A stretch of 64,000 nt of DNA from a virus. Taxonomy: Duplodnaviria; Heunggongvirae; Uroviricota; Caudoviricetes. The notes beneath the pieces were generated by a model. The model ran no database searches, had not been told where the DNA came from, and was given only the letters and a program-made list of their open reading frames with translations. Made by a program: the position numbers and the translations under genes. Below, piece after piece: positions 19,942 through 55,451 of this stretch. How positions within the stretch are numbered: the stretch's first letter is position 1; each line of letters opens with the position of its first letter. The DNA lies in the IMG/VR virus record IMGVR_UViG_2648501839_000008; one strand, 5' to 3'.

Positions 19942-20309
19942 CTTAGAGCAGTACCATCAGCAGTTGTATTGCTGACAATGCTACCATGAGTATTAAGAAA
20001 GCGGCGAATTGCACTCTCAATAATTTCAGAGAATTGGTCACTAAACCGTGCTAATTCAGGGTATTGTTTTGCTGGCTTCACAATGAAACGAACACGATCG
20101 TTCAGGAAAATCGCTTCAGCCAACGGTTTTACACTGGCACCAGCATTCTCAACATCGTCTTTGAAAGTTACGATGAAGCGAGTGTCTTTTGGCGCAGTCG
20201 CATCGTTGTTAAGTTTACGCACCTCAAGTTTGCGCTTATTCAGCACATGAGTTGCGATAACACTCGTGCAATCGCGAATTGTTTGTATAGAACGTTTTTC
20301 GTTCAGCAT
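19926..20309 (-). CDS. Hypothetical protein
   Basis: 127-aa ORF overlapping downstream gene by 16 nt. Confidence 0.4.
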   Translation of the reverse strand: MLNEKRSIQTIRDCTSVIATHVLNKRKLEVRKLNNDATAPKDTRFIVTFKDDVENAGASVKPLAEAIFLNDRVRFIVKPAKQYPELARFSDQFSEIIESAIRRFLNTHGSIVSNTTADGTALRWHLH

Positions 20310-20486
20310 GTGTCCACCTTAGCCGGTATTAACTTAATGTCATAGCGGCGACCCTTGTCAGGGTTTAGAGGCTACGAGTATGCGTCGCAGCATTAATGCA
20401 AGGGATGATTTACTTGACATCCATGTGCCAAATCTACCTTGTGCTCTAATAATATGCAAATTTTATGTTAGAAAACTCCTCTTCTG

Positions 20487-20717
20487 TTATGGTACTTTTC
20501 TGCCCCATCCACACAATCGCTCCCCTATCATATTGTGAAAAAGTACCTCTCTTTCAGTCTCTTCGGTCATGAGATCATCACGGCTGATGTATAGCGGTGT
20601 AGCCGCATCGCAGAAAAGCACACCAGCGGGTTGAGGCTTAATCACGCAACCACTTATTGTGCAACTCATGATGAACAGTAGAAGCATCCTTGCTCCGTAA
20701 CTCATCAAGTGTTTCAT
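20487..20717 (-). CDS. Putative o-spanin (outer-membrane lipoprotein, Rz1-like), overlapping i-spanin out of frame
   Basis: Lipobox-like LLFIMSCTISGC after internal Met (MKHLMSYG...); start trimmed from ORF-track 20795. Confidence 0.4.
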   Translation of the reverse strand: MKHLMSYGARMLLLFIMSCTISGCVIKPQPAGVLFCDAATPLYISRDDLMTEETEREVLFHNMIGERLCGWGRKVP

Positions 20718-20889
20718 TTTTGACGTCCAATGTGCTTTGAAGTCGTTTCCTGTCTTCCTGTTTTGCCTTCTCTTCCATTGCTCGTCGCGCCGCATTTCCG
20801 CCCATCGTGTAAGCGCCGACCAGAACGAAAAGAACGGCAGCCAGCGTAATCAAAGCAACTTTTAGCTTTGTCATCAGGCTGCCTAGCAT
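20638..20889 (-). CDS. Putative i-spanin (Rz-like: N-terminal TM, periplasmic coiled coil)
   Basis: N-terminal TM LKVALITLAAVLFVLVGAY followed by charged helical region; immediately after endolysin gene. Confidence 0.5.
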   Translation of the reverse strand: MLGSLMTKLKVALITLAAVLFVLVGAYTMGGNAARRAMEEKAKQEDRKRLQSTLDVKNETLDELRSKDASTVHHELHNKWLRD

Positions 20890-20890
20890 A

Positions 20891-21610
20891 TTAGACCATC
20901 CCTTTCTGGTGTCTTCTTACCTGCGACCAGGCAATGAATCCGGCCACAACAATAGTGGCAATGCCGAAGATGATGCGTACTGTATCCCCGCTAGAGATAT
21001 GACCTTGTGCCTTATCCATAGCAGCGGAAACCTGCGGCATAACATCGGCCAGCTGCGCCAGACCAATACCTGCTGTAACAGTTGCGCCTGCAGTTTCTTT
21101 AGTTACAGGAACAGCCTTCACGGTTTTCACCGGCTTAACGACGCCAGCTCGACGCAGACCTTCCTCAATAACTTCTGCCGCATACCAGGTGTTCAGCGTT
21201 TTTAGCGGACCTCGCCCATTCTCATGGCGAATGATTGCCTCAACCAAAGGTCGAAGAATGTCGTAATCATGCAGATCGATGATCATGTCTGCGGTTACAC
21301 CAACGGCTTTAGACACCTCATTAATGTAGGCGTCAGTGTTGTTTTCATTCGGCGGTGCCCAACGTTCAATAACTTCACGAATGGTATCGATACTTGAGCC
21401 GTCTTTTGCGCGACGTTTGTCGTGGTAGGTAATTAGAGTCACCGCCAGCGCACGAATCCCCCAAACAGGGTCTTTAAACGTGCAAAAGCGCGGTTCGTCT
21501 GGATTCGCAATCAGACCTTGCCACGGTGATCCTTTATCAAGATTACCGGGGTTATTATTACGAATGCCTCTCGGAGTCTTCATCCTTGATCTCCTGTTAT
21601 TGCAGTCCAT
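20891..21610 (-). CDS. Putative endolysin / peptidoglycan hydrolase with C-terminal hydrophobic segment
   Basis: Position in lysis cassette; N-terminal NNPGN motif region; C-terminal TM-like IIFGIATIVVAGFIAW. Confidence 0.5.
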   Translation of the reverse strand: MDCNNRRSRMKTPRGIRNNNPGNLDKGSPWQGLIANPDEPRFCTFKDPVWGIRALAVTLITYHDKRRAKDGSSIDTIREVIERWAPPNENNTDAYINEVSKAVGVTADMIIDLHDYDILRPLVEAIIRHENGRGPLKTLNTWYAAEVIEEGLRRAGVVKPVKTVKAVPVTKETAGATVTAGIGLAQLADVMPQVSAAMDKAQGHISSGDTVRIIFGIATIVVAGFIAWSQVRRHQKGMV

Positions 21611-21932
21611 TTTTTACGCCATACGCGGCTAACCCCAAAAGCAGTGCAGTAATAATGAACGACGTTATTTTAGAAACAATGCCGCCAAAGAACCCACTGG
21701 AGATGGAATCTAACCGGTTAAGGAGTTTGTCCAGGTTGGAGTGTTGAATACTATGTTGCGCCGGGGTCATATCACCAAAGTAGGTTTTCAGCTGATCATT
21801 GACCTCCTGGCCAATTTCTTCACGTAGCTCTTTACCTAATTTGCCAACAACCTCCCGAGCAACGATCGCGGCAATACGCTCAACTTGCTCTGTTGTAACG
21901 CCCGCCATCTCGTTCGACATGTTTTCCTCCAT
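21597..21932 (-). CDS. Putative holin / lysis membrane protein
   Basis: 111 aa with C-terminal TM ITSFIITALLLGLAAYGV; directly upstream of endolysin gene. Confidence 0.4.
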   Translation of the reverse strand: MEENMSNEMAGVTTEQVERIAAIVAREVVGKLGKELREEIGQEVNDQLKTYFGDMTPAQHSIQHSNLDKLLNRLDSISSGFFGGIVSKITSFIITALLLGLAAYGVKNGLQ

Positions 21933-22001
21933 GAAAAGTCAAATCGGGATGGCGGATTTATATCACATTTCACCTTCTTGTTGTAGGTGTGTACTTACTT
22001 A

Positions 22002-22232
22002 TCATTCAACATTGCAACGGACTGATGAGAAAGCACCTACTCCAACCCATCGCCAGTTATAGATGCTACCCGCTTTGTATAAGGTATAGTCGTTCACTTT
22101 TTTAACAGCATATATGGGTATGACTGTCTCCTGTCCACCAATGATAGCCTCACCATAACATATGGGTGTCGGCAATTTCTGACAGCCAGTAAGAGAGAGA
22201 ACAACAGCTATTGTTAGAAATAATCTTTTCAT
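22002..22232 (-). CDS. Small lipoprotein (possible superinfection exclusion / receptor-blocking protein)
   Basis: Signal peptide plus lipobox LSLTGC; 76 aa; sits between tail-fibre and lysis genes. Confidence 0.5.
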   Translation of the reverse strand: MKRLFLTIAVVLSLTGCQKLPTPICYGEAIIGGQETVIPIYAVKKVNDYTLYKAGSIYNWRWVGVGAFSSVRCNVE

Positions 22233-22242
22233 CGTTTACTCA

Positions 22243-22851
22243 TCAGTTATACAGATTTCTATTTATTACCGGTACTCTGCCATTTACGCTAAAACTATGG
22301 CCGCCATTAAGTTGGTTTACGAATATGGAACTAACAGTATTTCCATATGCCGCATATCCATAAACCATTGTCATGGCCCCGCCCGGTACTGGAACCGCGA
22401 ACACATTTGCATATGTTGGGATTATCGCTGGCGGGTAATCAAAAACATGCCCTCCAGAACTGTTCCACTCCGTATTATTAAGAAAGGTAAATGAAAGTGG
22501 GATATTTGCCGTATTATAGATCTCCTCTCCTCGCGCATTGAAAAAACTCATGCCCCAAGTTTCTTTTTTGGCTATACCTTTCGAAAATACGTATATCGTG
22601 GCACTAGAGTCGCTACCCTGACCTCCGAAACTGTAAATCACCTGGTTGTTACGCACTATTCTGTTGGCTATTAATGAAACAGCTTTCGAATAGGCAACAA
22701 AAATCATCGGTGAACGATCTGGAGATATTTGGGTGTTAAACTCTGTCCCGCCAGACAAAGAAACAACCTGCTTTCTCTGAAAAACGATAGGAGACAAAGA
22801 AGGAGACATCCAGACCTTCCCGTCAGATCGATATATCTTGCTTCCGTACAT
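22243..22851 (-). CDS. Tail fibre-associated protein (distal fibre or adhesin), tentative
   Basis: 202-aa ORF immediately downstream of tail-fibre genes. Confidence 0.35.
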   Translation of the reverse strand: MYGSKIYRSDGKVWMSPSLSPIVFQRKQVVSLSGGTEFNTQISPDRSPMIFVAYSKAVSLIANRIVRNNQVIYSFGGQGSDSSATIYVFSKGIAKKETWGMSFFNARGEEIYNTANIPLSFTFLNNTEWNSSGGHVFDYPPAIIPTYANVFAVPVPGGAMTMVYGYAAYGNTVSSIFVNQLNGGHSFSVNGRVPVINRNLYN

Positions 22852-23105
22852 TATTTTTGAAAAACCAATATGTTTAAATTGCCACTAGCTCCAGACCATG
22901 AAATGGTATTTCCAGAAACCGTAAGACTTGTGTATTTCCCATTGGTTACGTCCATTATGTAATAGTCGATTCCCAATCCCGCCTCAACCTCATATGTTCT
23001 ACTTCCAGAACCAGAGGGAGTAAAATAATCGAGGTAATAAACAGGGGCCAACGCATCGACCATCTCCTGTCTTGATGGCGACCATACCTGTGCACCATAG
23101 CTCAT
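22851..23105 (-). CDS. Hypothetical tail-associated protein
   Basis: 84-aa ORF abutting 22243..22851. Confidence 0.3.
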   Translation of the reverse strand: MSYGAQVWSPSRQEMVDALAPVYYLDYFTPSGSGSRTYEVEAGLGIDYYIMDVTNGKYTSLTVSGNTISWSGASGNLNILVFQK

Positions 23106-23165
23106 AAATATATCCTTATACTTTTAAGCAGGGGCTGGTTTAGTTCCAGCCCCGATTGAAGTTGT

Positions 23166-24788
23166 TTATTCTTTAGGTGAATTTAACTTCGTTTCAAGCT
23201 CCTCAACCCTTTTGGTCAATTGCTGAATATGATGAATGAGTGGTACAACCAAACGCTCATACATCACTCCTTCAGCGACCATACCATTTGAGGAAATATC
23301 TTCTGGAGAATCATTATTTGTTGGTTCACGCCAATGGACATATTGCGGGGCAATCTCACCAACCTCTTCAGCAATAAGGCCGTAATACCCCCAATCCTTT
23401 CGGTCACCTCGACAAATTGAACGATACCAAACAGGTCTTAATGACAAAAGTTCATCAGCATATCGATCTTGTAATGTTTCAATATCCTTTTTATAGCGCC
23501 TTGAAGATGTTGAACGCCAAACTGTATTGATACCTGGGTTTGGATCAATGTACATATTGGCACCGCTAGTAGTTGTGCCAATATCCCATATAGCAAACCC
23601 TCCACTACCGCCTGATTTGACAACCAGTGTTTCAGCAATAATATCCAGGTTGCCACTATAGCCTGTCAGTGATGATCTGCTTGCATAGGAACTTAGAAGG
23701 TTTGTTACCTCTGTTTTCGTATAAGCATTAAGGTTAGCCGCAGTCAAAGTAATATCGGCAGAGCCATCAAACGCCACACCAGCAATTTTCCTTGCTGTCT
23801 GCAATTTTGTGGCTGTTGCGGCATTACCAGTAGTATTCTGATTACCGGTTGTATTCACACCAGGGATTGAATCCTTAGCAGTATATACCTGCGCCCACGC
23901 TGACCATGCCGCATCTGTGGTATCTCTTCGTGAGCGAATGAAAACTGGCGCATGTGCACCGCTCGTACCACTCCAGCCAATAAGCAACTCGCCCTCACCA
24001 GCAGCACTCGCACCTTTCATGTGCAATACGTTGCCATACGTGGTCGGGTAGCTATTGTTGTACGCCTCGTACATTTGAATGCCAGCAGTGCCTTGAGTAG
24101 AGCCGCTTAATGCCGTAACTCGGCCACGAGATACCAGTGTATTAATGTTGATATCGCCTGAGCCATCAAACTTAACACCATTGATGTTTCTCGCTGTTTG
24201 CAACTTCGTAGCTGTTGAAGCATTACCGTTCAAACTACCATTTACGCCACCAGTCACATTTAGTCCATTACCAATTGATACCGCACCGCTGGTATTATTA
24301 ATTGTAATAGGTCGCAAACCGTTCCATGAACCTAATGTGTCTCCTGATGCTGTTAGCATGAAATATGTGTTCGATCCATCATTACGGATAAAGAACCCAA
24401 AGCTACCGTAAGCAATGCGGAAACCATTTGCATATTTTGAAATGATCTCGCCAGAAGATGTCAAACCTCCAGATAATGTACCACCGGTAAGAGGTAATGC
24501 ACCGACATCAGAGGCTGTTGGTTTGTTTTTCGTGTTATATACTCTTCGCCATCCCGGAGAATAATCTGTGCCATTAAATACATAGATAAACTCCGCATTA
24601 GTGAGAGCACCAGAGACACTCGTCGTTGTGGCCGTTGTTATACGGATCGTATAATTGTTTGAGCTACTACCGTTATTAAATACCTCTATAACAGCTCCTG
24701 CCAATGGAATAACGCCACAACCAGTTTCACTATTTGGTATGGTTGCACTATTGGCATAGGCCCACGCACTTTGTGTTAAATGCTCCAT
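23166..24788 (-). CDS. Tail fibre protein with C-terminal intramolecular chaperone (peptidase S74-like) domain
   Basis: C-terminal WRSTSSRRYKKDIE ... YGLIAEEV typical of auto-cleaving chaperone domains; shares GNAATATKLQTAR repeat modules with upstream fibre. Confidence 0.65.
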   Translation of the reverse strand: MEHLTQSAWAYANSATIPNSETGCGVIPLAGAVIEVFNNGSSSNNYTIRITTATTTSVSGALTNAEFIYVFNGTDYSPGWRRVYNTKNKPTASDVGALPLTGGTLSGGLTSSGEIISKYANGFRIAYGSFGFFIRNDGSNTYFMLTASGDTLGSWNGLRPITINNTSGAVSIGNGLNVTGGVNGSLNGNASTATKLQTARNINGVKFDGSGDININTLVSRGRVTALSGSTQGTAGIQMYEAYNNSYPTTYGNVLHMKGASAAGEGELLIGWSGTSGAHAPVFIRSRRDTTDAAWSAWAQVYTAKDSIPGVNTTGNQNTTGNAATATKLQTARKIAGVAFDGSADITLTAANLNAYTKTEVTNLLSSYASRSSLTGYSGNLDIIAETLVVKSGGSGGFAIWDIGTTTSGANMYIDPNPGINTVWRSTSSRRYKKDIETLQDRYADELLSLRPVWYRSICRGDRKDWGYYGLIAEEVGEIAPQYVHWREPTNNDSPEDISSNGMVAEGVMYERLVVPLIHHIQQLTKRVEELETKLNSPKE

Positions 24789-27306
24789 TATTTTGCAATA
24801 ACGTCACTAACTGTGCTGTTGTTATTGCTCCGCCATTACTTCCTGTAGTTAACCAACCAGTAGGAGATGCCGGGCAACCTATATTTGCTGGCGACAAGGA
24901 AATATTTGCCGAGCCGTCAAACGACACCCCATTGATAGTACGCGCAGTCTGCAACTTCGTTGCAGTAGCCGCGTTGCCCGTTGTATTCTGATTACCAGTC
25001 GTATTAACACCTGGCAAATTAATATTCGCAGTACCATCAAAGCTCACGCCGCCGATAGTTCTTGCCGTCTGAAGTTTTGTAGCAGTTGCAGCATTACCAG
25101 TGGTGTTCTGATTACCCGTAGTATTTACACCTGGAAGGTTGATATTTGCAGAACCGTCGAAACCAACTCCACCGATAGATCTTGCCGTCTGCAATTTCGT
25201 TGCTGTACTTGCATTACCATTTAATGTTCCGGTGATCCCACCAGTAACAGACAACGGACCTGAAACTGTTCCTCCGGTTGTTGGCAGTGCTCCAATATCT
25301 AACGGCGTCGGTTTCTGATGTGTGCTATACATCGTATAAACAACACCATCGGTAACGCTGGAAGGCTTACTCGCTGAATATGTTGGCGATGTATAAATAG
25401 AAACTGTCGCATTTGCAGTACAATCCCAATGGATATTTACACTAGTCGCATAATTGCCAATCTCAACGTAAATATCATATGTATCGCCGGATGTGTTGAT
25501 CCAGGCGAAATTCGTTAATCCGACGGCTGTACGCTTCCACAAAGCACCGGTAATCCCTTTGGGGTTTCCATTGCCTGCTCGTAGAACCAGTTCTGAAATG
25601 CCTGCCTGATGTGGGGAGCCGACGTTGTAACCAGCGCCACCAATCAATGCGATGTAAACGATGGAACTCGCTTGTGGCATGGTAACCGTAGCCAGTTTGA
25701 ACCACCCAGCCCCGCCAGAGAAAGACATCGTTACTGAATTTAAAGTACCAATATCTTTCGGCGTTAATGTGATATCCGCAGTCAGTGCTTTACCGTTAAC
25801 TTTTCGGTTAGATGGCACCCTGCTATTCGCATTGTCATTGGCTGCTTTAACTGCTTTTGGCGTTGCGGCCAGCGATTCACTGGTGCTGTCGACAGCACTG
25901 CTAAGTTTCACAACACCTTTGGTGGTAAGGCTTGCGTCTTCCATCGCAACGGCACCGGCAATCTCTTCAGCACGATCAGCGGCAGCTTCTGCACGGGTCG
26001 CAGCGGATTCAGCAGCAGCTTTGCTCTGAGATGCAGCCGTCGCACTGCCTGCCGCCTCTGTTGCTTTCGTGGATGCCGTTGAAGCACTCCCCTTCGCAGC
26101 TGATGCCTGCTTGGTCGCCTCATCTTTTGAAGCGGATGCCGAGGTGGCTGATGCAGACGCAGAACTTGCAGATTCAGCAGCTGCCTCTTTAGAGGAAGCG
26201 GCATTATCTTCAGAAGCCTTTGCATTTGTTTCAGAGGATTTTGCTGCCGATGCTGAATTTTTAGCGGCTGTAGCCTGATTCGTCGCCTCAGTCGCTTTTG
26301 CGGTAGCTGTTGTCGCTGACGACGACGCGCTTTCCGCAGATTTTCCTGCCGCAGTTGCACTTGATGAAGCACTATCCGCACTTGCTGAGGCTGCGCTTGC
26401 TGACGCTTCTGCCGCAGATTTCGAACTGTTTGCAGACGATGCACTCTGCCCGGCTGCCGTTTCAGATGCTTTTGCGTTTGTCTCTGACGCTTTTGCTGCC
26501 TTAGACGAATTTTCAGCTTCTGTTGCAAATGATGCAGCCGCGTTTGCACTCGATGAAGCGTTAGTCTCTGATGCTTTGGCTGCATCCTTAGATGCAGAGG
26601 CACTGGACGCAGATGTTGCTGCCTCCGATGCTTTGGTCGACGCTACAGACGCTGATTCTGCTGCCGCTAGATATGCTGATTCTGCGTTCGTTTCAGATTT
26701 TTTCGCAGCAGTTGCACTCGCACTTGCGGCACTTTGTGAGGATGCCGCAGCGGATGCACTTTGAGACGCTTGAGAGGCTTTTTCTCCAGCGGTATTGGCG
26801 CTTTCTGCTGCTGCGGCAGCACTGGCCGCCGCCTCACGAGCTTTGTCACCAGCGGCATCAATCGCGTCAGTGTTATTTTTATACCACTCAACGTTTTCGT
26901 TGTGCTCGTTGACGATCTGCATCAGCGGCTTAACGGTCACTTCTGTACCGTCTTCACGCTCGATTGTCACCTCATCCAGAGCAGTCAACCAACTACGCAT
27001 GGACTTGGAATCAGCCGACATACGCGACATTAGCGCGGTAAAGCGCGCGCTAAACTGTGTTAAGTCGCCTTCATAGGTAGTAATGATTCGGCACGGAACT
27101 TCAGACTGAGTTTCACCGGTATAAGGTTCTGAGAGAACAATGTTCGTATCGCTTGTTACGCGCTTGATCTCATACAGCTTATTGTCGGGGCCAATGACGA
27201 TCATCCCCGGCAACACACCATTAGCTGTTACGTTCCAGGCTGTCCCAACCCCAACCAGAGTATTACTACCCTGTGTAAATGTGATAGTACCTTCCCTGTA
27301 CCACAT
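24748..27306 (-). CDS. Side tail fibre protein, lambda Stf-like
   Basis: Ala/Ser-rich KASETNA repeats and segment AAGSATAASQSKAAAESAATRAEAAADRAEEIAGAVAMEDASLTTKGVVKLSSAVDSTSESLAATPKAVK closely resembling lambda Stf as recalled from memory. Confidence 0.8.
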   Translation of the reverse strand: MWYREGTITFTQGSNTLVGVGTAWNVTANGVLPGMIVIGPDNKLYEIKRVTSDTNIVLSEPYTGETQSEVPCRIITTYEGDLTQFSARFTALMSRMSADSKSMRSWLTALDEVTIEREDGTEVTVKPLMQIVNEHNENVEWYKNNTDAIDAAGDKAREAAASAAAAAESANTAGEKASQASQSASAAASSQSAASASATAAKKSETNAESAYLAAAESASVASTKASEAATSASSASASKDAAKASETNASSSANAAASFATEAENSSKAAKASETNAKASETAAGQSASSANSSKSAAEASASAASASADSASSSATAAGKSAESASSSATTATAKATEATNQATAAKNSASAAKSSETNAKASEDNAASSKEAAAESASSASASATSASASKDEATKQASAAKGSASTASTKATEAAGSATAASQSKAAAESAATRAEAAADRAEEIAGAVAMEDASLTTKGVVKLSSAVDSTSESLAATPKAVKAANDNANSRVPSNRKVNGKALTADITLTPKDIGTLNSVTMSFSGGAGWFKLATVTMPQASSIVYIALIGGAGYNVGSPHQAGISELVLRAGNGNPKGITGALWKRTAVGLTNFAWINTSGDTYDIYVEIGNYATSVNIHWDCTANATVSIYTSPTYSASKPSSVTDGVVYTMYSTHQKPTPLDIGALPTTGGTVSGPLSVTGGITGTLNGNASTATKLQTARSIGGVGFDGSANINLPGVNTTGNQNTTGNAATATKLQTARTIGGVSFDGTANINLPGVNTTGNQNTTGNAATATKLQTARTINGVSFDGSANISLSPANIGCPASPTGWLTTGSNGGAITTAQLVTLLQNNGAFNTKCVGLCQ

Positions 27307-27399: not shown

Positions 27400-30300
27400 T
27401 CACAGAAGGCCAATTCTTACTCGTAAGACGTTGTTATCGTCATAAACGTCAATCCGCTGACCATTTATAACCAATCGCCCATTGCCGCCGCTATTACCGT
27501 TGATCTCAAGCGTTCCATTTTTGCCGAACCGCCATCCAGATCTACCGCTAACAAAATTGGTAGATTGCAGATCGCCTACTTTTGCATTGGTGATTGTGCC
27601 ATCCTTGATATACGCACCATTCATATAGGCGATACTGTTTTCGATAACAAATGGCGTGGTGATCTTCCCGTTAACAGAGTTGACCAAACCAAATCTGTCC
27701 GCCTGCACCAAAAACTGAGAAAGACCGGTGGTGTCGATACCAAGCGCAATACCGGCAACATACTTCTGCCCTCCGCTCGTTGAAGTCTCCATTTTCAACG
27801 TCCACGCGGTTGAGACTTTTTTGTTGGTATCAGCAATGGCTGTTGCCTGCTGTTGAATTGTCGCGGTATTTCCATCCACCTCTGCTTTCAGAGTATCGAT
27901 TCGCCCACTTAGAGCATTATCTGCCTGCGTTCTCGCTGTCGTTTCAGTTGTGACCGCCGCAGAAATGTTGGCTGCTGTTTGAGACTCTAAGTTTGTGATT
28001 TGAGTCGCCAATGCCGCATCTTGCTCTGTACGCGTTTTCGTTTCGGTTGCTACAGCCGCTTTAATATCCTCTTTGTATTGAGAGGTCAGCTTGGTGATCT
28101 GAGATGACAACGCCGAGTCAGCATCAGTTCGAGCCTGCGTTTCCACTGCAACGGCCGCACTAATATCTTTCGCAGTCTGTGCTTTTAAACTTGAAACCTC
28201 TTTTGTTAAAGCGGTATCGCCATCTGCACGAGCCGTTGTTTCTTTGGCAAGAGACGCCTCGAGATCATTAGCTTTTGCTGTAAGAGATGTAATCTGGCTG
28301 GACAATGCACTATCGGCGTCAGTCCTTGCCTTTGTCTCTACAGCAACGGCTGCGACAATGTCAGTTCCGGTCTGCGCCCGCAGGCTGTTAATTTCTCGTG
28401 AGAGCGCCTCGTCAGCACTTGCTCTAGCCTCCTGCTCCTGAGTGATGGCGGCGGATATATCACCGTCAACCTTTGCTTGAAGCTGGTTTATTTGTTTAGC
28501 TAACGCAGAGTCTCCGCTCGCACGCGCCTCCTGCTCACTGCGTATTGCAGCAGAAATATCATCATCAACTTTTGCCTGAAGTTGGGTGATCTGGCTTGCC
28601 AGAGCCGAATCTTCCGTTGCTCGGGCTTCTTGCTCTTCCTTAATGGCTGCGACAATATCGTTGCTTACTTTCGACTCAAGCTGAGTTATTTGTTTCGTCA
28701 AAGCTTCATCGGCAGATGTACGAGCCTCCTGTTCTGTACTAATCGCCGCGCTGATATCTCCTTCAAACTTAGATTGCAGCTGAGTGACACGCTTTGCCAA
28801 CGCTTCATCGCCATCGGCACGAGCGGTGGACTCTTCCAGAATACTGGCCTTAATGTCTTCGCCAATTTCTACGCGAATTTCCTCAACCTTCGTGGCCATT
28901 GCAGACATATCATCAGCAAAGGTTTTCTGTGTTGTTGCGATCTTCGCGTTATTGACCATCTGCTTGTGCTGGTCTTCATCTTGACGAAGAGCCAGGTCAA
29001 TATTTGTTTTAGCTAACGCCTCAATGTTCGTAGTCAGTTCTGCACTGGCACGATCGACCTCTGCAACCGTCTTTTTCATTTCTTCAACGGCTGCGGAACT
29101 TTCCTCTACCGTCGACTGCAACACTTCCAGTTGTTTAGCGTTTGCGGCATCACCTTCAACACGAGCCTCGCTTTCCTTAGCAATAAGAGCCGCCGCTTCG
29201 TCTCTTGCAGCCTTTATTGCCTCGACTGTATTAGCGAGAGCTTTATCGTGTTCAGATACGGTGTTTTCGATTTCAACAATTGCAGCATCAGTAGCATCAA
29301 TTTTTTCAAACGCTTCATTGACCTTGTCGATCGTTGCCGAAACCTCACCTTTAAGCTCGGTTTGTGCGTTCTCCAAAGCATCGCTACGCTCGTTGAATTT
29401 TATTTCAAAACCCGCGAGGTTATCGCTGAACTGCTTATCTAATTCAGCTATATCTTCCTTAACGTCGTTTACCGCCCCCTCCAAAGATTCGACGCTCTGG
29501 TTGATATGCTCATTTAACTCGTCAACTGCTTCTTGAGAGGCTTTGCTGTTGATGTCCTCAAGCAGAGCCTGACCAAGCTCGGAAGATGTAATTTTGCCAG
29601 CCAGGAACGACAGTACATCGCGAGTTGTCGCCTCTGTACCCAAGTTTGAGTTCGGAGGGCTTAACATACCTCGCTTGTTCGATGCTCGAACCCAGTAATA
29701 CCACGTTTCGCTATCCCCAAGACCAGCATGTGTAAAGGTGGTGCTTGCAGACTCTGCGATCAGTTTCGCCGTATCCAGATTGTTGGTCTGGGATGCGTAA
29801 ACATTAATGTGATCAAGGTCTACCGAATCTGGATTAACCCAATTCAGTATCACATTACGATAGTCTCCAACGGCCGTTAATGACGTTGGTGCATCCGGCG
29901 GTGTCATTGTGCCCAGCACCTGATAAACGGTACTGATAATTTCTGTTTTTTTACCGTTGAATGAAACCGCATACAGTTGGAAGTCGTAGCGTCCATTCTC
30001 CGCGACATTAACGATTTCGTATTGCTCTTCGGTTACACGCGCCGATTGCCAGTTCGATACATTGTTTTCATCAGAACGTCGCCAACTGATCCAATACTCT
30101 GGAGATTTCCCTTCCCATGTTGCAGTCAGTTTTACTGACAGGTTGCCCGGGCTTGAGAGGTAAGTCCCTTCAGTGATTTGCAAATTAGACGGCTTGGAGT
30201 AAGTCGGGTCCAATACCGTCGTATTCTGCGGGATAAGCGTTGCACCATTGTCGATCGCCTCATATTTAGACGGATTGTTTTCAACAGCGGTGATGTCAAA

Positions 30301-32130
30301 GCTACCCGACGTTTCCCCCTGAGCGATGTTAACGATGCGAACGCGCATAGGTTCGAGATCTGGTTCTGTAATTGTCCAGACACCGTTCAAAACAGGCGTT
30401 TCCGCTGACGACAGAGCTTTTGAAAACGTAACCTTTGTTATGTTTTCGCCAGTTTCAAGAACATCGCGCTCAACGATTTTGCCTTCCTGATTCAATATCC
30501 GAATAAAGCTGCCGCTTTTAGCTAACGACACAGGCGCATCGAGAGTGATGCTGTTTTTGGTAAACTCCACAATTCGACCGGAGTTACGTTTACCTGCACG
30601 ATATTTGTTCTGAATCAGAACGGTTTCACCGGGCATCAGAAATGAGGCGTCTAAGCCGGCAGTAAATGTAATTACATCCGACTCCATTCTGGCGGTATAC
30701 AAAAGCCACAAACCAACTCGGTGAGCCTGGCCTCGGCTTGTACATCCAAATGCTACGACTTCTGTTTTACGCTCACCATAACGGCGCATTGCGTCCTGAT
30801 CTTCAACGTACTCGATGTTTTGCTTATAACCGTCCTCCTTGTTGTTGTAGGTTACGAGCGCAACGGATGGGCGATCTTTACGCGCAGAACCTTTATAGGT
30901 AAACAGTCCATCTTTGACGTTGGAGTTGGTAAACATCATTACTGGATCTGATGGGCTATCCTGCATGATGTTAACCATGCCACCAGCCCAAAACACCATG
31001 CCGCGGAATGCACCGGCAATATCCTGAATTAATCGGTATGCGTCTTGTCGACTGGTGATCTGCGTATTGATTGCAAAGCGTTTCTCTTTACCCCCAAAGC
31101 CATCATCGACCTCTTCGTCACAATATCGACCAATCTGGTAGAGCTGGCCGAGGTCAATCATGGATTCCGACACAAATTGCCCAAGACCATACCGAGTATT
31201 GGTAAGCAAATCGTAGAGAATCCACGCAGGGTTTGAAGAAGACAACAGCTTAAAAGTACCGTCCCATACGCCGACATAAGTATTGGTGTATTCGTTGTAG
31301 TTTGACGGCACTCGAATTTTGATACCGCGCACCAAATACGAACGGGAAGGCATTGTGCTACCAAACTGCTCTGAATTGACCTTTAAGCCAACAAGTGCAG
31401 AGTTAGGGTAGTTCATGGGGGTATCTACAATCTCACCGATGGAATCAACCCAAGTATCGTTGTAGAGGTACTGGCTACTGTTATCATCCGTAAGACGAAT
31501 CACCCGAACCTTGTATGCACGGCCAGGTTTAGGCAGTTTCAGCTCATAGCTACGGTAATACACGCCGGTTTTCTTTGCCGTTAGCGTGATATCAACGCTT
31601 TTCTCACCTTCTGCCACTACATCAGAAAATGTTGCGTCTCCGTTGGCGATCTGGAATTTGTACTTCACCGTAGTGCCATTTGTATCGCCAGAGCTTTTAT
31701 CAACGCTACGTAAAGAGGGGAATTTCATGATGACACGAACGCGATCAGCTTCATCGTTATCGATTGAAACCGTAACGTCGTGTGTTTTTTTAAGCTGAAT
31801 ATTTACGGACTTAGGCGTTTCGACAAAATCAAAACCAGCCATTGGCGTCTGGTCTTGTGAGCCGTCACGAAAATCCCATGTAATACCGCTGAAGTTGGAA
31901 GAGCCATCTTCATTCAAGATCGGTAAATCGTCGATGAAGATCGACTTTGCGCCATTTACCAGGCCACCGATAACCCCCTCGCCAAGAAGGTCGAGGATGG
32001 CTGCCATAGCACGAGAATTTACAGTATCATCAGCTTCAACCGGGGTACGGCTGGAGCTTTTACTTTTCTTGCCACCAGCACCGGCAATAAGAAGCGGTAA
32101 TTTTTTCTTCTTGAACTGTTCCATGTCCAA
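27400..32130 (-). CDS. Tail tip / host specificity protein (lambda gpJ-like) with long coiled-coil repeat region
   Basis: N-terminal region with NPAWILYDLLTNTRYGLG characteristic of gpJ family; about 450 aa of periodic DISAAI...EQEARASADEAL repeats; 1576 aa. Confidence 0.85.
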   Translation of the reverse strand: MDMEQFKKKKLPLLIAGAGGKKSKSSSRTPVEADDTVNSRAMAAILDLLGEGVIGGLVNGAKSIFIDDLPILNEDGSSNFSGITWDFRDGSQDQTPMAGFDFVETPKSVNIQLKKTHDVTVSIDNDEADRVRVIMKFPSLRSVDKSSGDTNGTTVKYKFQIANGDATFSDVVAEGEKSVDITLTAKKTGVYYRSYELKLPKPGRAYKVRVIRLTDDNSSQYLYNDTWVDSIGEIVDTPMNYPNSALVGLKVNSEQFGSTMPSRSYLVRGIKIRVPSNYNEYTNTYVGVWDGTFKLLSSSNPAWILYDLLTNTRYGLGQFVSESMIDLGQLYQIGRYCDEEVDDGFGGKEKRFAINTQITSRQDAYRLIQDIAGAFRGMVFWAGGMVNIMQDSPSDPVMMFTNSNVKDGLFTYKGSARKDRPSVALVTYNNKEDGYKQNIEYVEDQDAMRRYGERKTEVVAFGCTSRGQAHRVGLWLLYTARMESDVITFTAGLDASFLMPGETVLIQNKYRAGKRNSGRIVEFTKNSITLDAPVSLAKSGSFIRILNQEGKIVERDVLETGENITKVTFSKALSSAETPVLNGVWTITEPDLEPMRVRIVNIAQGETSGSFDITAVENNPSKYEAIDNGATLIPQNTTVLDPTYSKPSNLQITEGTYLSSPGNLSVKLTATWEGKSPEYWISWRRSDENNVSNWQSARVTEEQYEIVNVAENGRYDFQLYAVSFNGKKTEIISTVYQVLGTMTPPDAPTSLTAVGDYRNVILNWVNPDSVDLDHINVYASQTNNLDTAKLIAESASTTFTHAGLGDSETWYYWVRASNKRGMLSPPNSNLGTEATTRDVLSFLAGKITSSELGQALLEDINSKASQEAVDELNEHINQSVESLEGAVNDVKEDIAELDKQFSDNLAGFEIKFNERSDALENAQTELKGEVSATIDKVNEAFEKIDATDAAIVEIENTVSEHDKALANTVEAIKAARDEAAALIAKESEARVEGDAANAKQLEVLQSTVEESSAAVEEMKKTVAEVDRASAELTTNIEALAKTNIDLALRQDEDQHKQMVNNAKIATTQKTFADDMSAMATKVEEIRVEIGEDIKASILEESTARADGDEALAKRVTQLQSKFEGDISAAISTEQEARTSADEALTKQITQLESKVSNDIVAAIKEEQEARATEDSALASQITQLQAKVDDDISAAIRSEQEARASGDSALAKQINQLQAKVDGDISAAITQEQEARASADEALSREINSLRAQTGTDIVAAVAVETKARTDADSALSSQITSLTAKANDLEASLAKETTARADGDTALTKEVSSLKAQTAKDISAAVAVETQARTDADSALSSQITKLTSQYKEDIKAAVATETKTRTEQDAALATQITNLESQTAANISAAVTTETTARTQADNALSGRIDTLKAEVDGNTATIQQQATAIADTNKKVSTAWTLKMETSTSGGQKYVAGIALGIDTTGLSQFLVQADRFGLVNSVNGKITTPFVIENSIAYMNGAYIKDGTITNAKVGDLQSTNFVSGRSGWRFGKNGTLEINGNSGGNGRLVINGQRIDVYDDNNVLRVRIGLL

Positions 32131-54986: not shown

Positions 54987-55451
54987 ATGAAGTCTCCCAT
55001 ACTGTTCACTTTCTGTTCTAAAACTATCATGAAATACTCGCTTCTCCCTCTACTAACGTTACCAGTGTTGATGCTTACCGCGTGCCAATCACGCCCAATA
55101 TCAATCCATGACGCCAAACCAGCACCGCAGGCCAAAGTGTTCAAGTATCAAAGCGCAGCGCCAGCTACGTTGGTGGTAATGAGAGACACAGGTTTTGTAG
55201 GAGCTGGATGTGATGCTTCCATTTTCATCAACGGCGAAACTGTCGCAAAACTGGCTACAGGCGAAAAAGCGACTTTCCATTTAAATGCCGGAGAATTAAT
55301 TGTGGGTGCATCTCTTGAAGGTGCAGGTTTATGTGCTCTAAACCCCGCTCGTCAAGAGCGAGAAACGACTCTGAAGAATGGAGACACAAAAGCGTTCAGG
55401 GTGTTCACCAGCAATTCTGGTGACATCGACATTCTGCCAACAACTCTGTGA
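54987..55451 (+). CDS. Lipoprotein
   Basis: Signal peptide with lipobox LMLTAC; start may be internal Met (MKYSLL...). Confidence 0.5.
   Translation: MKSPILFTFCSKTIMKYSLLPLLTLPVLMLTACQSRPISIHDAKPAPQAKVFKYQSAAPATLVVMRDTGFVGAGCDASIFINGETVAKLATGEKATFHLNAGELIVGASLEGAGLCALNPARQERETTLKNGDTKAFRVFTSNSGDIDILPTTL

Follow-up and report, generated by a model that had tools for sequence, protein, structure and literature searches.

The window analyzed in this study is the whole 64,000-nucleotide stretch of DNA presented above, and it belongs to an SSU5-like phage-plasmid of E. coli. Its genes match those of the Salmonella phage-plasmid SSU5 and the E. coli phages Cyrano, CMS-2020a, and PhiR41_1, and the genes matched to SSU5-type relatives include those for a DnaB-like helicase, ParA, the lysis proteins, a J-type tip protein, and the side fiber. 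The E. coli matches are all located on plasmids of about 100–115 kb, and none on chromosomes. The gene under study, cor, lies within a series of minus-strand genes arranged in the order J, side fiber, an 84-aa gene, a 202-aa gene, cor, holin, endolysin, and Rz/Rz1. The cor region is 99.8% identical in DNA to that of the E. coli plasmid pAVS0968-B, in which PGAP also names the gene cor and its protein has the accession WP_033803601.1.

The J gene (27400..32130, minus strand) encodes a J-type central tail-tip protein of 1576 aa, which shares an amino acid identity of 31% with N15 gp21 over ~940 aa and of 32% in its last ~200 aa. The N15 protein is 1061 aa in length, and the extra length of the window protein consists of ~33-residue coiled-coil-like repeats (DISAAI..E.EAR..AD.AL..QI..L) at about residues 840–1430, before the conserved C-terminal tip. 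The side tail-fiber gene (23166..27306, minus strand) carries the Pfam domains Gp34_trimer and Peptidase_S74 and matches PHROG 3299 at positions 849–1385. It is split into an 852-aa ORF (24748..27306) and a 540-aa ORF (23166..24788) with a 41-nt overlap, because 17 bp near 24767 are missing in comparison with pAVS0968-B, in which the gene is intact (1385 aa) and otherwise 99.4% identical. The split side fiber may be an inactivated gene or an assembly error. Two further genes of the window were recorded. A 567-aa KAP-family P-loop NTPase (16239..17942, minus strand) lies in a low-GC island (29%, against ~47% in the flanks) and matches the PADLOC candidate defense system PDC-S49 (E = 2.8e-22) and PHROG 4740; its site is a variable hotspot adjoining parA, which is occupied by a GIY-YIG LEM-3-like gene in pAVS0968-B and by a KacT toxin-antitoxin pair in Cyrano. 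A second lipoprotein of 140 aa with the lipobox LTAC is encoded on the plus strand (55029..55451) and matches PHROG 890, ‘lipoprotein’ (E = 9e-52).

The cor gene (22002..22232, minus strand) is an ATG-to-stop ORF that encodes a 76-aa prolipoprotein of the Cor superinfection-exclusion family (MKRLFLTIAVVLSLTGCQKLPTPICYGEAIIGGQETVIPIYAVKKVNDYTLYKAGSIYNWRWVGVGAFSSVRCNVE, also written as MKRLFLTIAVVLSLTGC|QKLPTPICYGEAIIGGQETVIPIYAVKKVNDYTLYKAGSIYNWRWVGVGAFSSVRCNVE). The sequence-only reading had described a 76-aa ORF with a signal peptide and the lipobox LTGC at this location, which is confirmed here, and the minus strand, absent from that description, is added. It had also placed the gene immediately downstream of the receptor-binding fiber genes; cor is indeed downstream of the fiber gene, but the two small genes of 84 aa and 202 aa intervene. 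The signal peptide (residues 1–16, MKRLFLTIAVVLSLTG; 22185..22232, minus strand) comprises a basic n-region, K2/R3, and a hydrophobic core with a maximum KD10 of 2.74, and the match of Pfam LPAM_1 to it is weak (17.3 bits, below the 20-bit cutoff). The lipobox L14-T15-G16-C17 (22182..22193, minus strand) can be read straight from the sequence, and Cys17 is predicted to be the lipidated first residue of mature Cor. The segment MKRLFLTIAVVLS-LTGC-Q provides a signal peptide, a lipobox cysteine, and a +2 residue other than Asp, like other Cor proteins, and Gln at this +2 position predicts sorting to the outer membrane. The protein also obeys the PROSITE PS51257-type lipoprotein rule, which was coded for this analysis. 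In a PS51257-style scan, four distinct lipobox-bearing ATG-ORFs were found in the window, versus ~1.2 in shuffled windows. The lipobox alone is thus not beyond chance, and the lipoprotein call is decided by the family HMM matches together with purifying selection on cor (dN/dS of 0–0.3 versus close relatives).

The family matches cover nearly the whole protein. The NCBIfam equivalog NF047972, “phage exclusion lipoprotein Cor,” was matched at 80.5 bits (curated cutoff of 31), with residues 1–74 of Cor aligned to model positions 1–77 of 78, and PHROG 1119, “Cor superinfection exclusion protein,” was matched over residues 1–74 (E = 3.6e-30). The RefSeq protein WP_033803601.1, “phage exclusion lipoprotein Cor,” is 100% identical to the window protein. 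A tblastn search with Cor returned 194 phage records, all with at least 80% query coverage and most annotated as Cor, including N15 gene 24, HK/mEp lambdoids, ES18, T1-like phages, and Dhillonvirus phages. The amino acid identity of the window Cor is 59% to SSU5 Cor, 43% to the Cor proteins of phi80 and N15, 28% to that of T1, and at most 47% to lambdoid or characterized Cor proteins. In a collection of 5.8 billion proteins, a single-sequence search yielded three near-identical fragments, and a profile search was needed to recover 57 homologs. In PADLOC, no model matched cor or its 84-aa and 202-aa partners.

Conservation among the homologs bears on how the mature protein may be built. The lipobox pattern was matched by 60 of the 62 distinct Cor homologs collected, and in all of these 60 the +2 residue is A, S, Q, or T and never Asp, and exactly two cysteines follow the lipobox Cys. 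These two align with Cys25 (22158..22160, minus strand) and Cys73 (22014..22016, minus strand), the two invariant cysteines of the mature domain (alignments A1 and A3). Such a pattern would be expected of a lipoprotein in the outer membrane that has a single intramolecular disulfide, and Cys25 and Cys73 are the predicted disulfide partners; an intramolecular disulfide is common to Llp and Cor (PMC9586334). Besides both cysteines, A54, G55, V63, and F68 show little or no variation (alignments A1, A3, and A5), and the conserved A-G...F/Y-x-W/F-x-W/Y-V core is present.

A single-sequence AlphaFold2 model of Cor was unreliable (pLDDT 60.6), its Foldseek matches were generic small beta-barrels, and it was discarded. 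A confident model was obtained from a 58-sequence alignment to which the 57 homologs had been added, with a mean pLDDT of 83.5, five beta strands, and pLDDT >93 at residues 21–70. Among all PDB representatives, T5 Llp is the closest fold to the predicted Cor, although Foldseek with the Cor model was less discriminating and placed Llp at rank 33 (E = 0.42, TM 0.54). In phmmer and hmmsearch comparisons with PDB sequences, the sole Llp match was 8a60_B (E = 0.0021), obtained with a Cor profile that includes the signal peptide; with a mature-only profile this match to Llp vanished, showing that it had been driven by the signal peptide. The modeling therefore supports a fold shared by Cor and T5 Llp, and hence a structural basis for a protein that works like Llp, but the lack of a mature-sequence match does not extend this to the Llp sequence family. 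Neither mature-domain similarity nor a pb5-type neighbor gene supports membership of Cor in that family. Cor and Llp have been described as one structural family and as models of one architecture (bioRxiv 10.64898/2026.03.26.714494; PMC9586334). The receptor-masking role of the Cor/Llp type that the sequence-only reading had proposed gains support from NF047972, PHROG 1119, the RefSeq identity, and the Llp-like predicted fold.

The two genes between the side fiber and cor encode its cassette partners. The 202-aa protein (22243..22851, minus strand) belongs to the N15 gp23/T1 gp31/phi80 gp23 family (PHROG 425, E = 5.5e-49) and shares 23% identity with N15 gp23 (E = 4e-5), while the 84-aa protein (22851..23105, minus strand) belongs to the N15 gp22/T1 gp32/phi80 gp22 family (PHROG 557, E = 1.3e-24) and shares 28% identity with N15 gp22 (E = 3e-5). 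Both genes are under purifying selection (dN/dS of 0–0.14). Neither the 202-aa protein (maximum KD19 of 1.24) nor, by hydropathy, the 84-aa protein contains a signal peptide or a transmembrane segment, as would be expected of virion proteins assembled in the cytoplasm more than of envelope proteins. The two proteins start with a similar M-x-YG motif. In RefSeq and in the SSU5 GenBank record, the 202-aa gene is annotated as 188 aa with the start MSPSL. The N-terminus of the 202-aa version, MYGSKIYRSDGKVW, aligns with the N-termini of N15 gp23 and T1 gp31, and its start overlaps the 84-aa gene by ATGA; the N-terminal alignment favors the 202-aa start, and the public 188-aa start is probably too short.

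The same trio is found as genes 22-23-24 of N15, as gp22-23-cor of phi80, and in the T1 locus. A Cor alignment was used to retrieve 80 IMG/VR loci. Of these, 78 were not truncated and hence assessable, and in every one of the 78 the small, big, and cor genes follow each other in this order on one strand. The homology between the window and the cassette-free Cyrano and PhiR41_1 stops at 22003, within the cor stop codon, and the colinearity with SSU5 stops at 23105, the start codon of the 84-aa gene. These sharp boundaries define the cassette as discrete, and the 84-aa gene, the 202-aa gene, and cor are a module that travels as a unit between phages. In the Stx-type podophages (Sepvirinae), the genes for the closest Cor relatives (58% identity) follow a tail-fiber adhesin, and the gp22/gp23-like pair is located ~3 kb downstream of cor, next to lom. 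In phage vB_EcoP_phi367, Cor is encoded at 4986–5213, and the gp22/gp23-like region is at 8454–9355. The Sepvirinae arrangement indicates that the trio is not always contiguous, nor is it confined to siphoviruses with a J tip.

Downstream of cor, a complete lysis module spans 20487..21932 on the minus strand and consists of a holin (21597..21932, PHROG 5093), an endolysin (20891..21610, PHROG 873), Rz (20638..20889, PHROG 1026), and the overlapping Rz1 lipoprotein (within 20487..20717, PHROG 1275), which has the lipobox ISGC. The counterparts in SSU5 and Cyrano are annotated as holin, endolysin, Rz, and Rz1. The holin ORF is listed from the ATG at 21932, and an internal ATG at 21920 (MSNEMAG...) is preceded by GGAGG; the latter start is consistent with both the length of 107 aa annotated in relatives and the PHROG 5093 coverage of residues 5–111, and the holin probably starts at 21920. 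The cor gene starts 10 nt after the stop of the 202-aa gene, and 69 nt separate it from the holin ORF downstream. A scan of 21400–25000 gave six promoter-like and three terminator-like sites, against 8.6 and 2.7 expected, so neither signal rose above chance. The short gap before cor, the 69 nt to the holin with no terminator detected, and the lack of promoter enrichment suggest that cor is co-transcribed with the late tail and lysis genes, that is, expressed late in the lytic cycle. Unless an internal promoter exists, such late expression would make Cor act like a “lytic conversion” protein that shields progeny from debris.

Taken together, the gene is best read as cor on an SSU5-like phage-plasmid, encoding a Cor-type exclusion lipoprotein that most likely acts on FhuA, a reading to which we assign a probability of about 0.78. 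In the proposed mechanism, Cor would form a small five-stranded beta domain stapled by the Cys25–Cys73 disulfide, and would most likely bind the periplasmic face of the TonB-dependent transporter FhuA, as its studied homologs and T5 Llp do. Through such binding, FhuA would be held in a state in which its surface loops refuse phage receptor-binding proteins. FhuA-dependent phages could then no longer infect cells making Cor, and progeny virions would cease to be trapped by FhuA on the debris of lysed cells. For Cor of the SSU5 clade we infer FhuA as the target from the homologs and from the synteny of the linked cassette, and periplasmic allosteric binding and outer-membrane localization are likewise expected of this protein. 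The experimentally studied homologs are those of phi80, N15, HK022, mEp167, and T1. It is reported that Cor of phi80, N15, and mEp167 functionally inactivates FhuA (bioRxiv 10.64898/2026.03.26.714494), and both exclusion of FhuA-dependent phages and inactivation of FhuA transport are documented in the literature for the Cor proteins of phi80, N15, mEp167, and T1. An AF3 model places a T1-like Cor at the same FhuA site (PMC13164509). In the searchable literature, no experiments on SSU5-clade Cor were found.

Several other explanations of the locus were weighed. Cor is a small lipoprotein of the outer-membrane type, its gene shares a strand with the holin ORF only 69 nt away, and no terminator was detected in the interval; on these grounds it could be imagined as a lysis-module lipoprotein, either an o-spanin or a lysis regulator. 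However, a complete Rz/Rz1 pair with a lipobox of its own is already present at 20487..20889 (PHROGs 1026 and 1275), cor matches no spanin family and lies 1.1 kb from Rz, and Cyrano carries the lysis module at 94% nucleotide identity without cor. The sequence-only reading had itself named a part in the lysis machinery as the finding that would overturn it; the full holin/endolysin/Rz/Rz1 set downstream is complete without cor, and the lysis-gene reading, which we consider extremely improbable, was rejected. A different question is whether Cor of the SSU5 clade masks an outer-membrane protein other than FhuA, for example, the TonB-dependent transporters BtuB or FepA. The window protein belongs to a separate branch, to judge from the identities of 59% to SSU5 Cor and at most 47% to lambdoid Cor. 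Moreover, the partner identities to N15 gp22 and gp23 of just 23–28% fall below the 30% threshold by which a recent preprint defines receptor-specific families, and the literature describes Cor/Llp-like lipoproteins in BtuB-targeting phages and the unrelated lipoprotein Rtp45 for LptD. Against this, every characterized phage with the full three-gene cassette depends on FhuA, including T1, HK022, N15, ES18, phi80, and the FhuA-targeting BASEL phages (PMC13164509), and the full-length matches of all three window proteins are still to the same PHROG and NCBIfam families. A target other than FhuA appears improbable to us, though clearly less so than a role in lysis.

The distribution of the cassette raises the further question of whose receptor is masked. 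The lysis module of the phage-plasmid was found in 238 of 5426 complete E. coli genomes, and the cassette in only 68 of these 238 (~29%, equal to ~1.3% of the 5426). The last 600 nt of J are present at ≥95% nucleotide identity in 168 E. coli genomes, and at least ~97 genomes or plasmids have the same J tip without the cassette. The cassette is missing from Cyrano, the record of which is a complete phage genome, and the last 266 aa of its J protein are 99% identical; cassette-free relatives with such a J tip are thus viable phages. PhiR41_1 has unrelated genes at the same site. Since the J tip is near-identical with and without the cassette, Cor may not mask a receptor that this phage strictly needs. 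It is thus possible, though in our view doubtful, that Cor serves as a defense against foreign FhuA-dependent phages and not as a mask of the phage’s own receptor, with entry mainly through the side fibers and the LPS core and with the cassette optional; a statement in PMC10972627, made there with reference to Kim 2014, that SSU5 is LPS-core-specific agrees with this. On the other hand, the cassette partners, having neither signal peptide nor transmembrane segment, fit a receptor-binding add-on of the virion, which would make FhuA the phage’s own receptor. Phages that use as their terminal receptor an outer-membrane protein covered by O-antigen also typically show a rough-specific phenotype. 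Furthermore, in the BASEL study and the 2026 preprint the locus is regarded as the one for receptor binding, accompanied by the exclusion protein that belongs to it. Most economically, the cassette would be an optional addition that provides for the use of FhuA and masks it at the same time. More speculatively, and with a lower likelihood than the foreign-phage defense, the 84-aa gene, the 202-aa gene, and cor might constitute a self-contained plug-in that adds a receptor specificity, presumably for FhuA, together with a matching mask to an unchanged J tip, or alternatively a receptor other than FhuA might be the one that is masked.

A common E. coli phage-plasmid carries the window gene, a cor allele that was known and annotated before. 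As RefSeq and PGAP already name this protein Cor, the finding is correct but already known, and it matters little in itself, cor being a long-known lysogenic/lytic-conversion gene. What interest remains concerns the three-gene module, as a facultative one, and the identity of the receptor. Whether gp22/gp23-like proteins bind the receptor or act as accessory factors in exclusion is disputed, and the presence/absence polymorphism of the cassette, with the J tip constant, provides an inexpensive natural experiment for the role of the partner proteins. In addition, the cassette-bearing strains (68 of the 5426 E. coli genomes) are predicted to be resistant to FhuA-dependent phages of the T1-, T5-, and phi80-like types, which bears on host-range prediction for phage therapy, and may possibly resist the FhuA-dependent antimicrobials albomycin, colicin M, and microcin J25.

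Compared with known systems, the window Cor belongs to the same family as T1 Cor and the lambdoid/N15-type Cor proteins of phi80, N15, HK022, and mEp167. These are about 75–78 aa in length, have the same lipobox, the two conserved cysteines, and the AG-x-x-[FY]-x-[WF]-x-[WY]-V motif, and their cor is likewise the last gene of a gp22-gp23-cor cassette beside tail genes. The window Cor differs in lacking the three-residue ‘EKQ’ insertion of the lambdoid clade, and its cassette follows the side-fiber gene, whereas those of the lambdoid/N15/T1 type directly follow J. The gap before cor is 10 nt in the window versus ~110 nt in N15 and phi80, T1 cor is on the opposite strand, and the carrier is a phage-plasmid of about 100–115 kb, unlike the carriers of lambdoid/N15/T1 cor. 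The ‘Cor-like protein’ SSU5_025 shares both the type of element and the locus (SSU5_023, 024, and 025, then holin, endolysin, and Rz/Rz1), and SSU5 is colinear with the window over 20274–23105 at 74% nucleotide identity; it differs in the sequence of Cor (59% amino acid identity), in its Salmonella host, and in its upstream fiber genes. T5 Llp, the lytic conversion lipoprotein (PDB 8A60 chain B and 7QJF), has no detectable sequence similarity to Cor in the mature domain. Its gene is expressed early, adjoins the pb5 receptor-binding gene, and has no gp22/gp23-like partners, whereas the neighbors of cor are the PHROG 425 and 557 proteins and the holin, not pb5. Rtp45, the superinfection-exclusion lipoprotein of phage Rtp, targets LptDE (PDB 9RPS) and is likewise a small lipoprotein of the periplasmic face. 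Its gene closes the receptor-binding locus downstream of J, and the protein blocks the phage receptor by inducing a conformational change.
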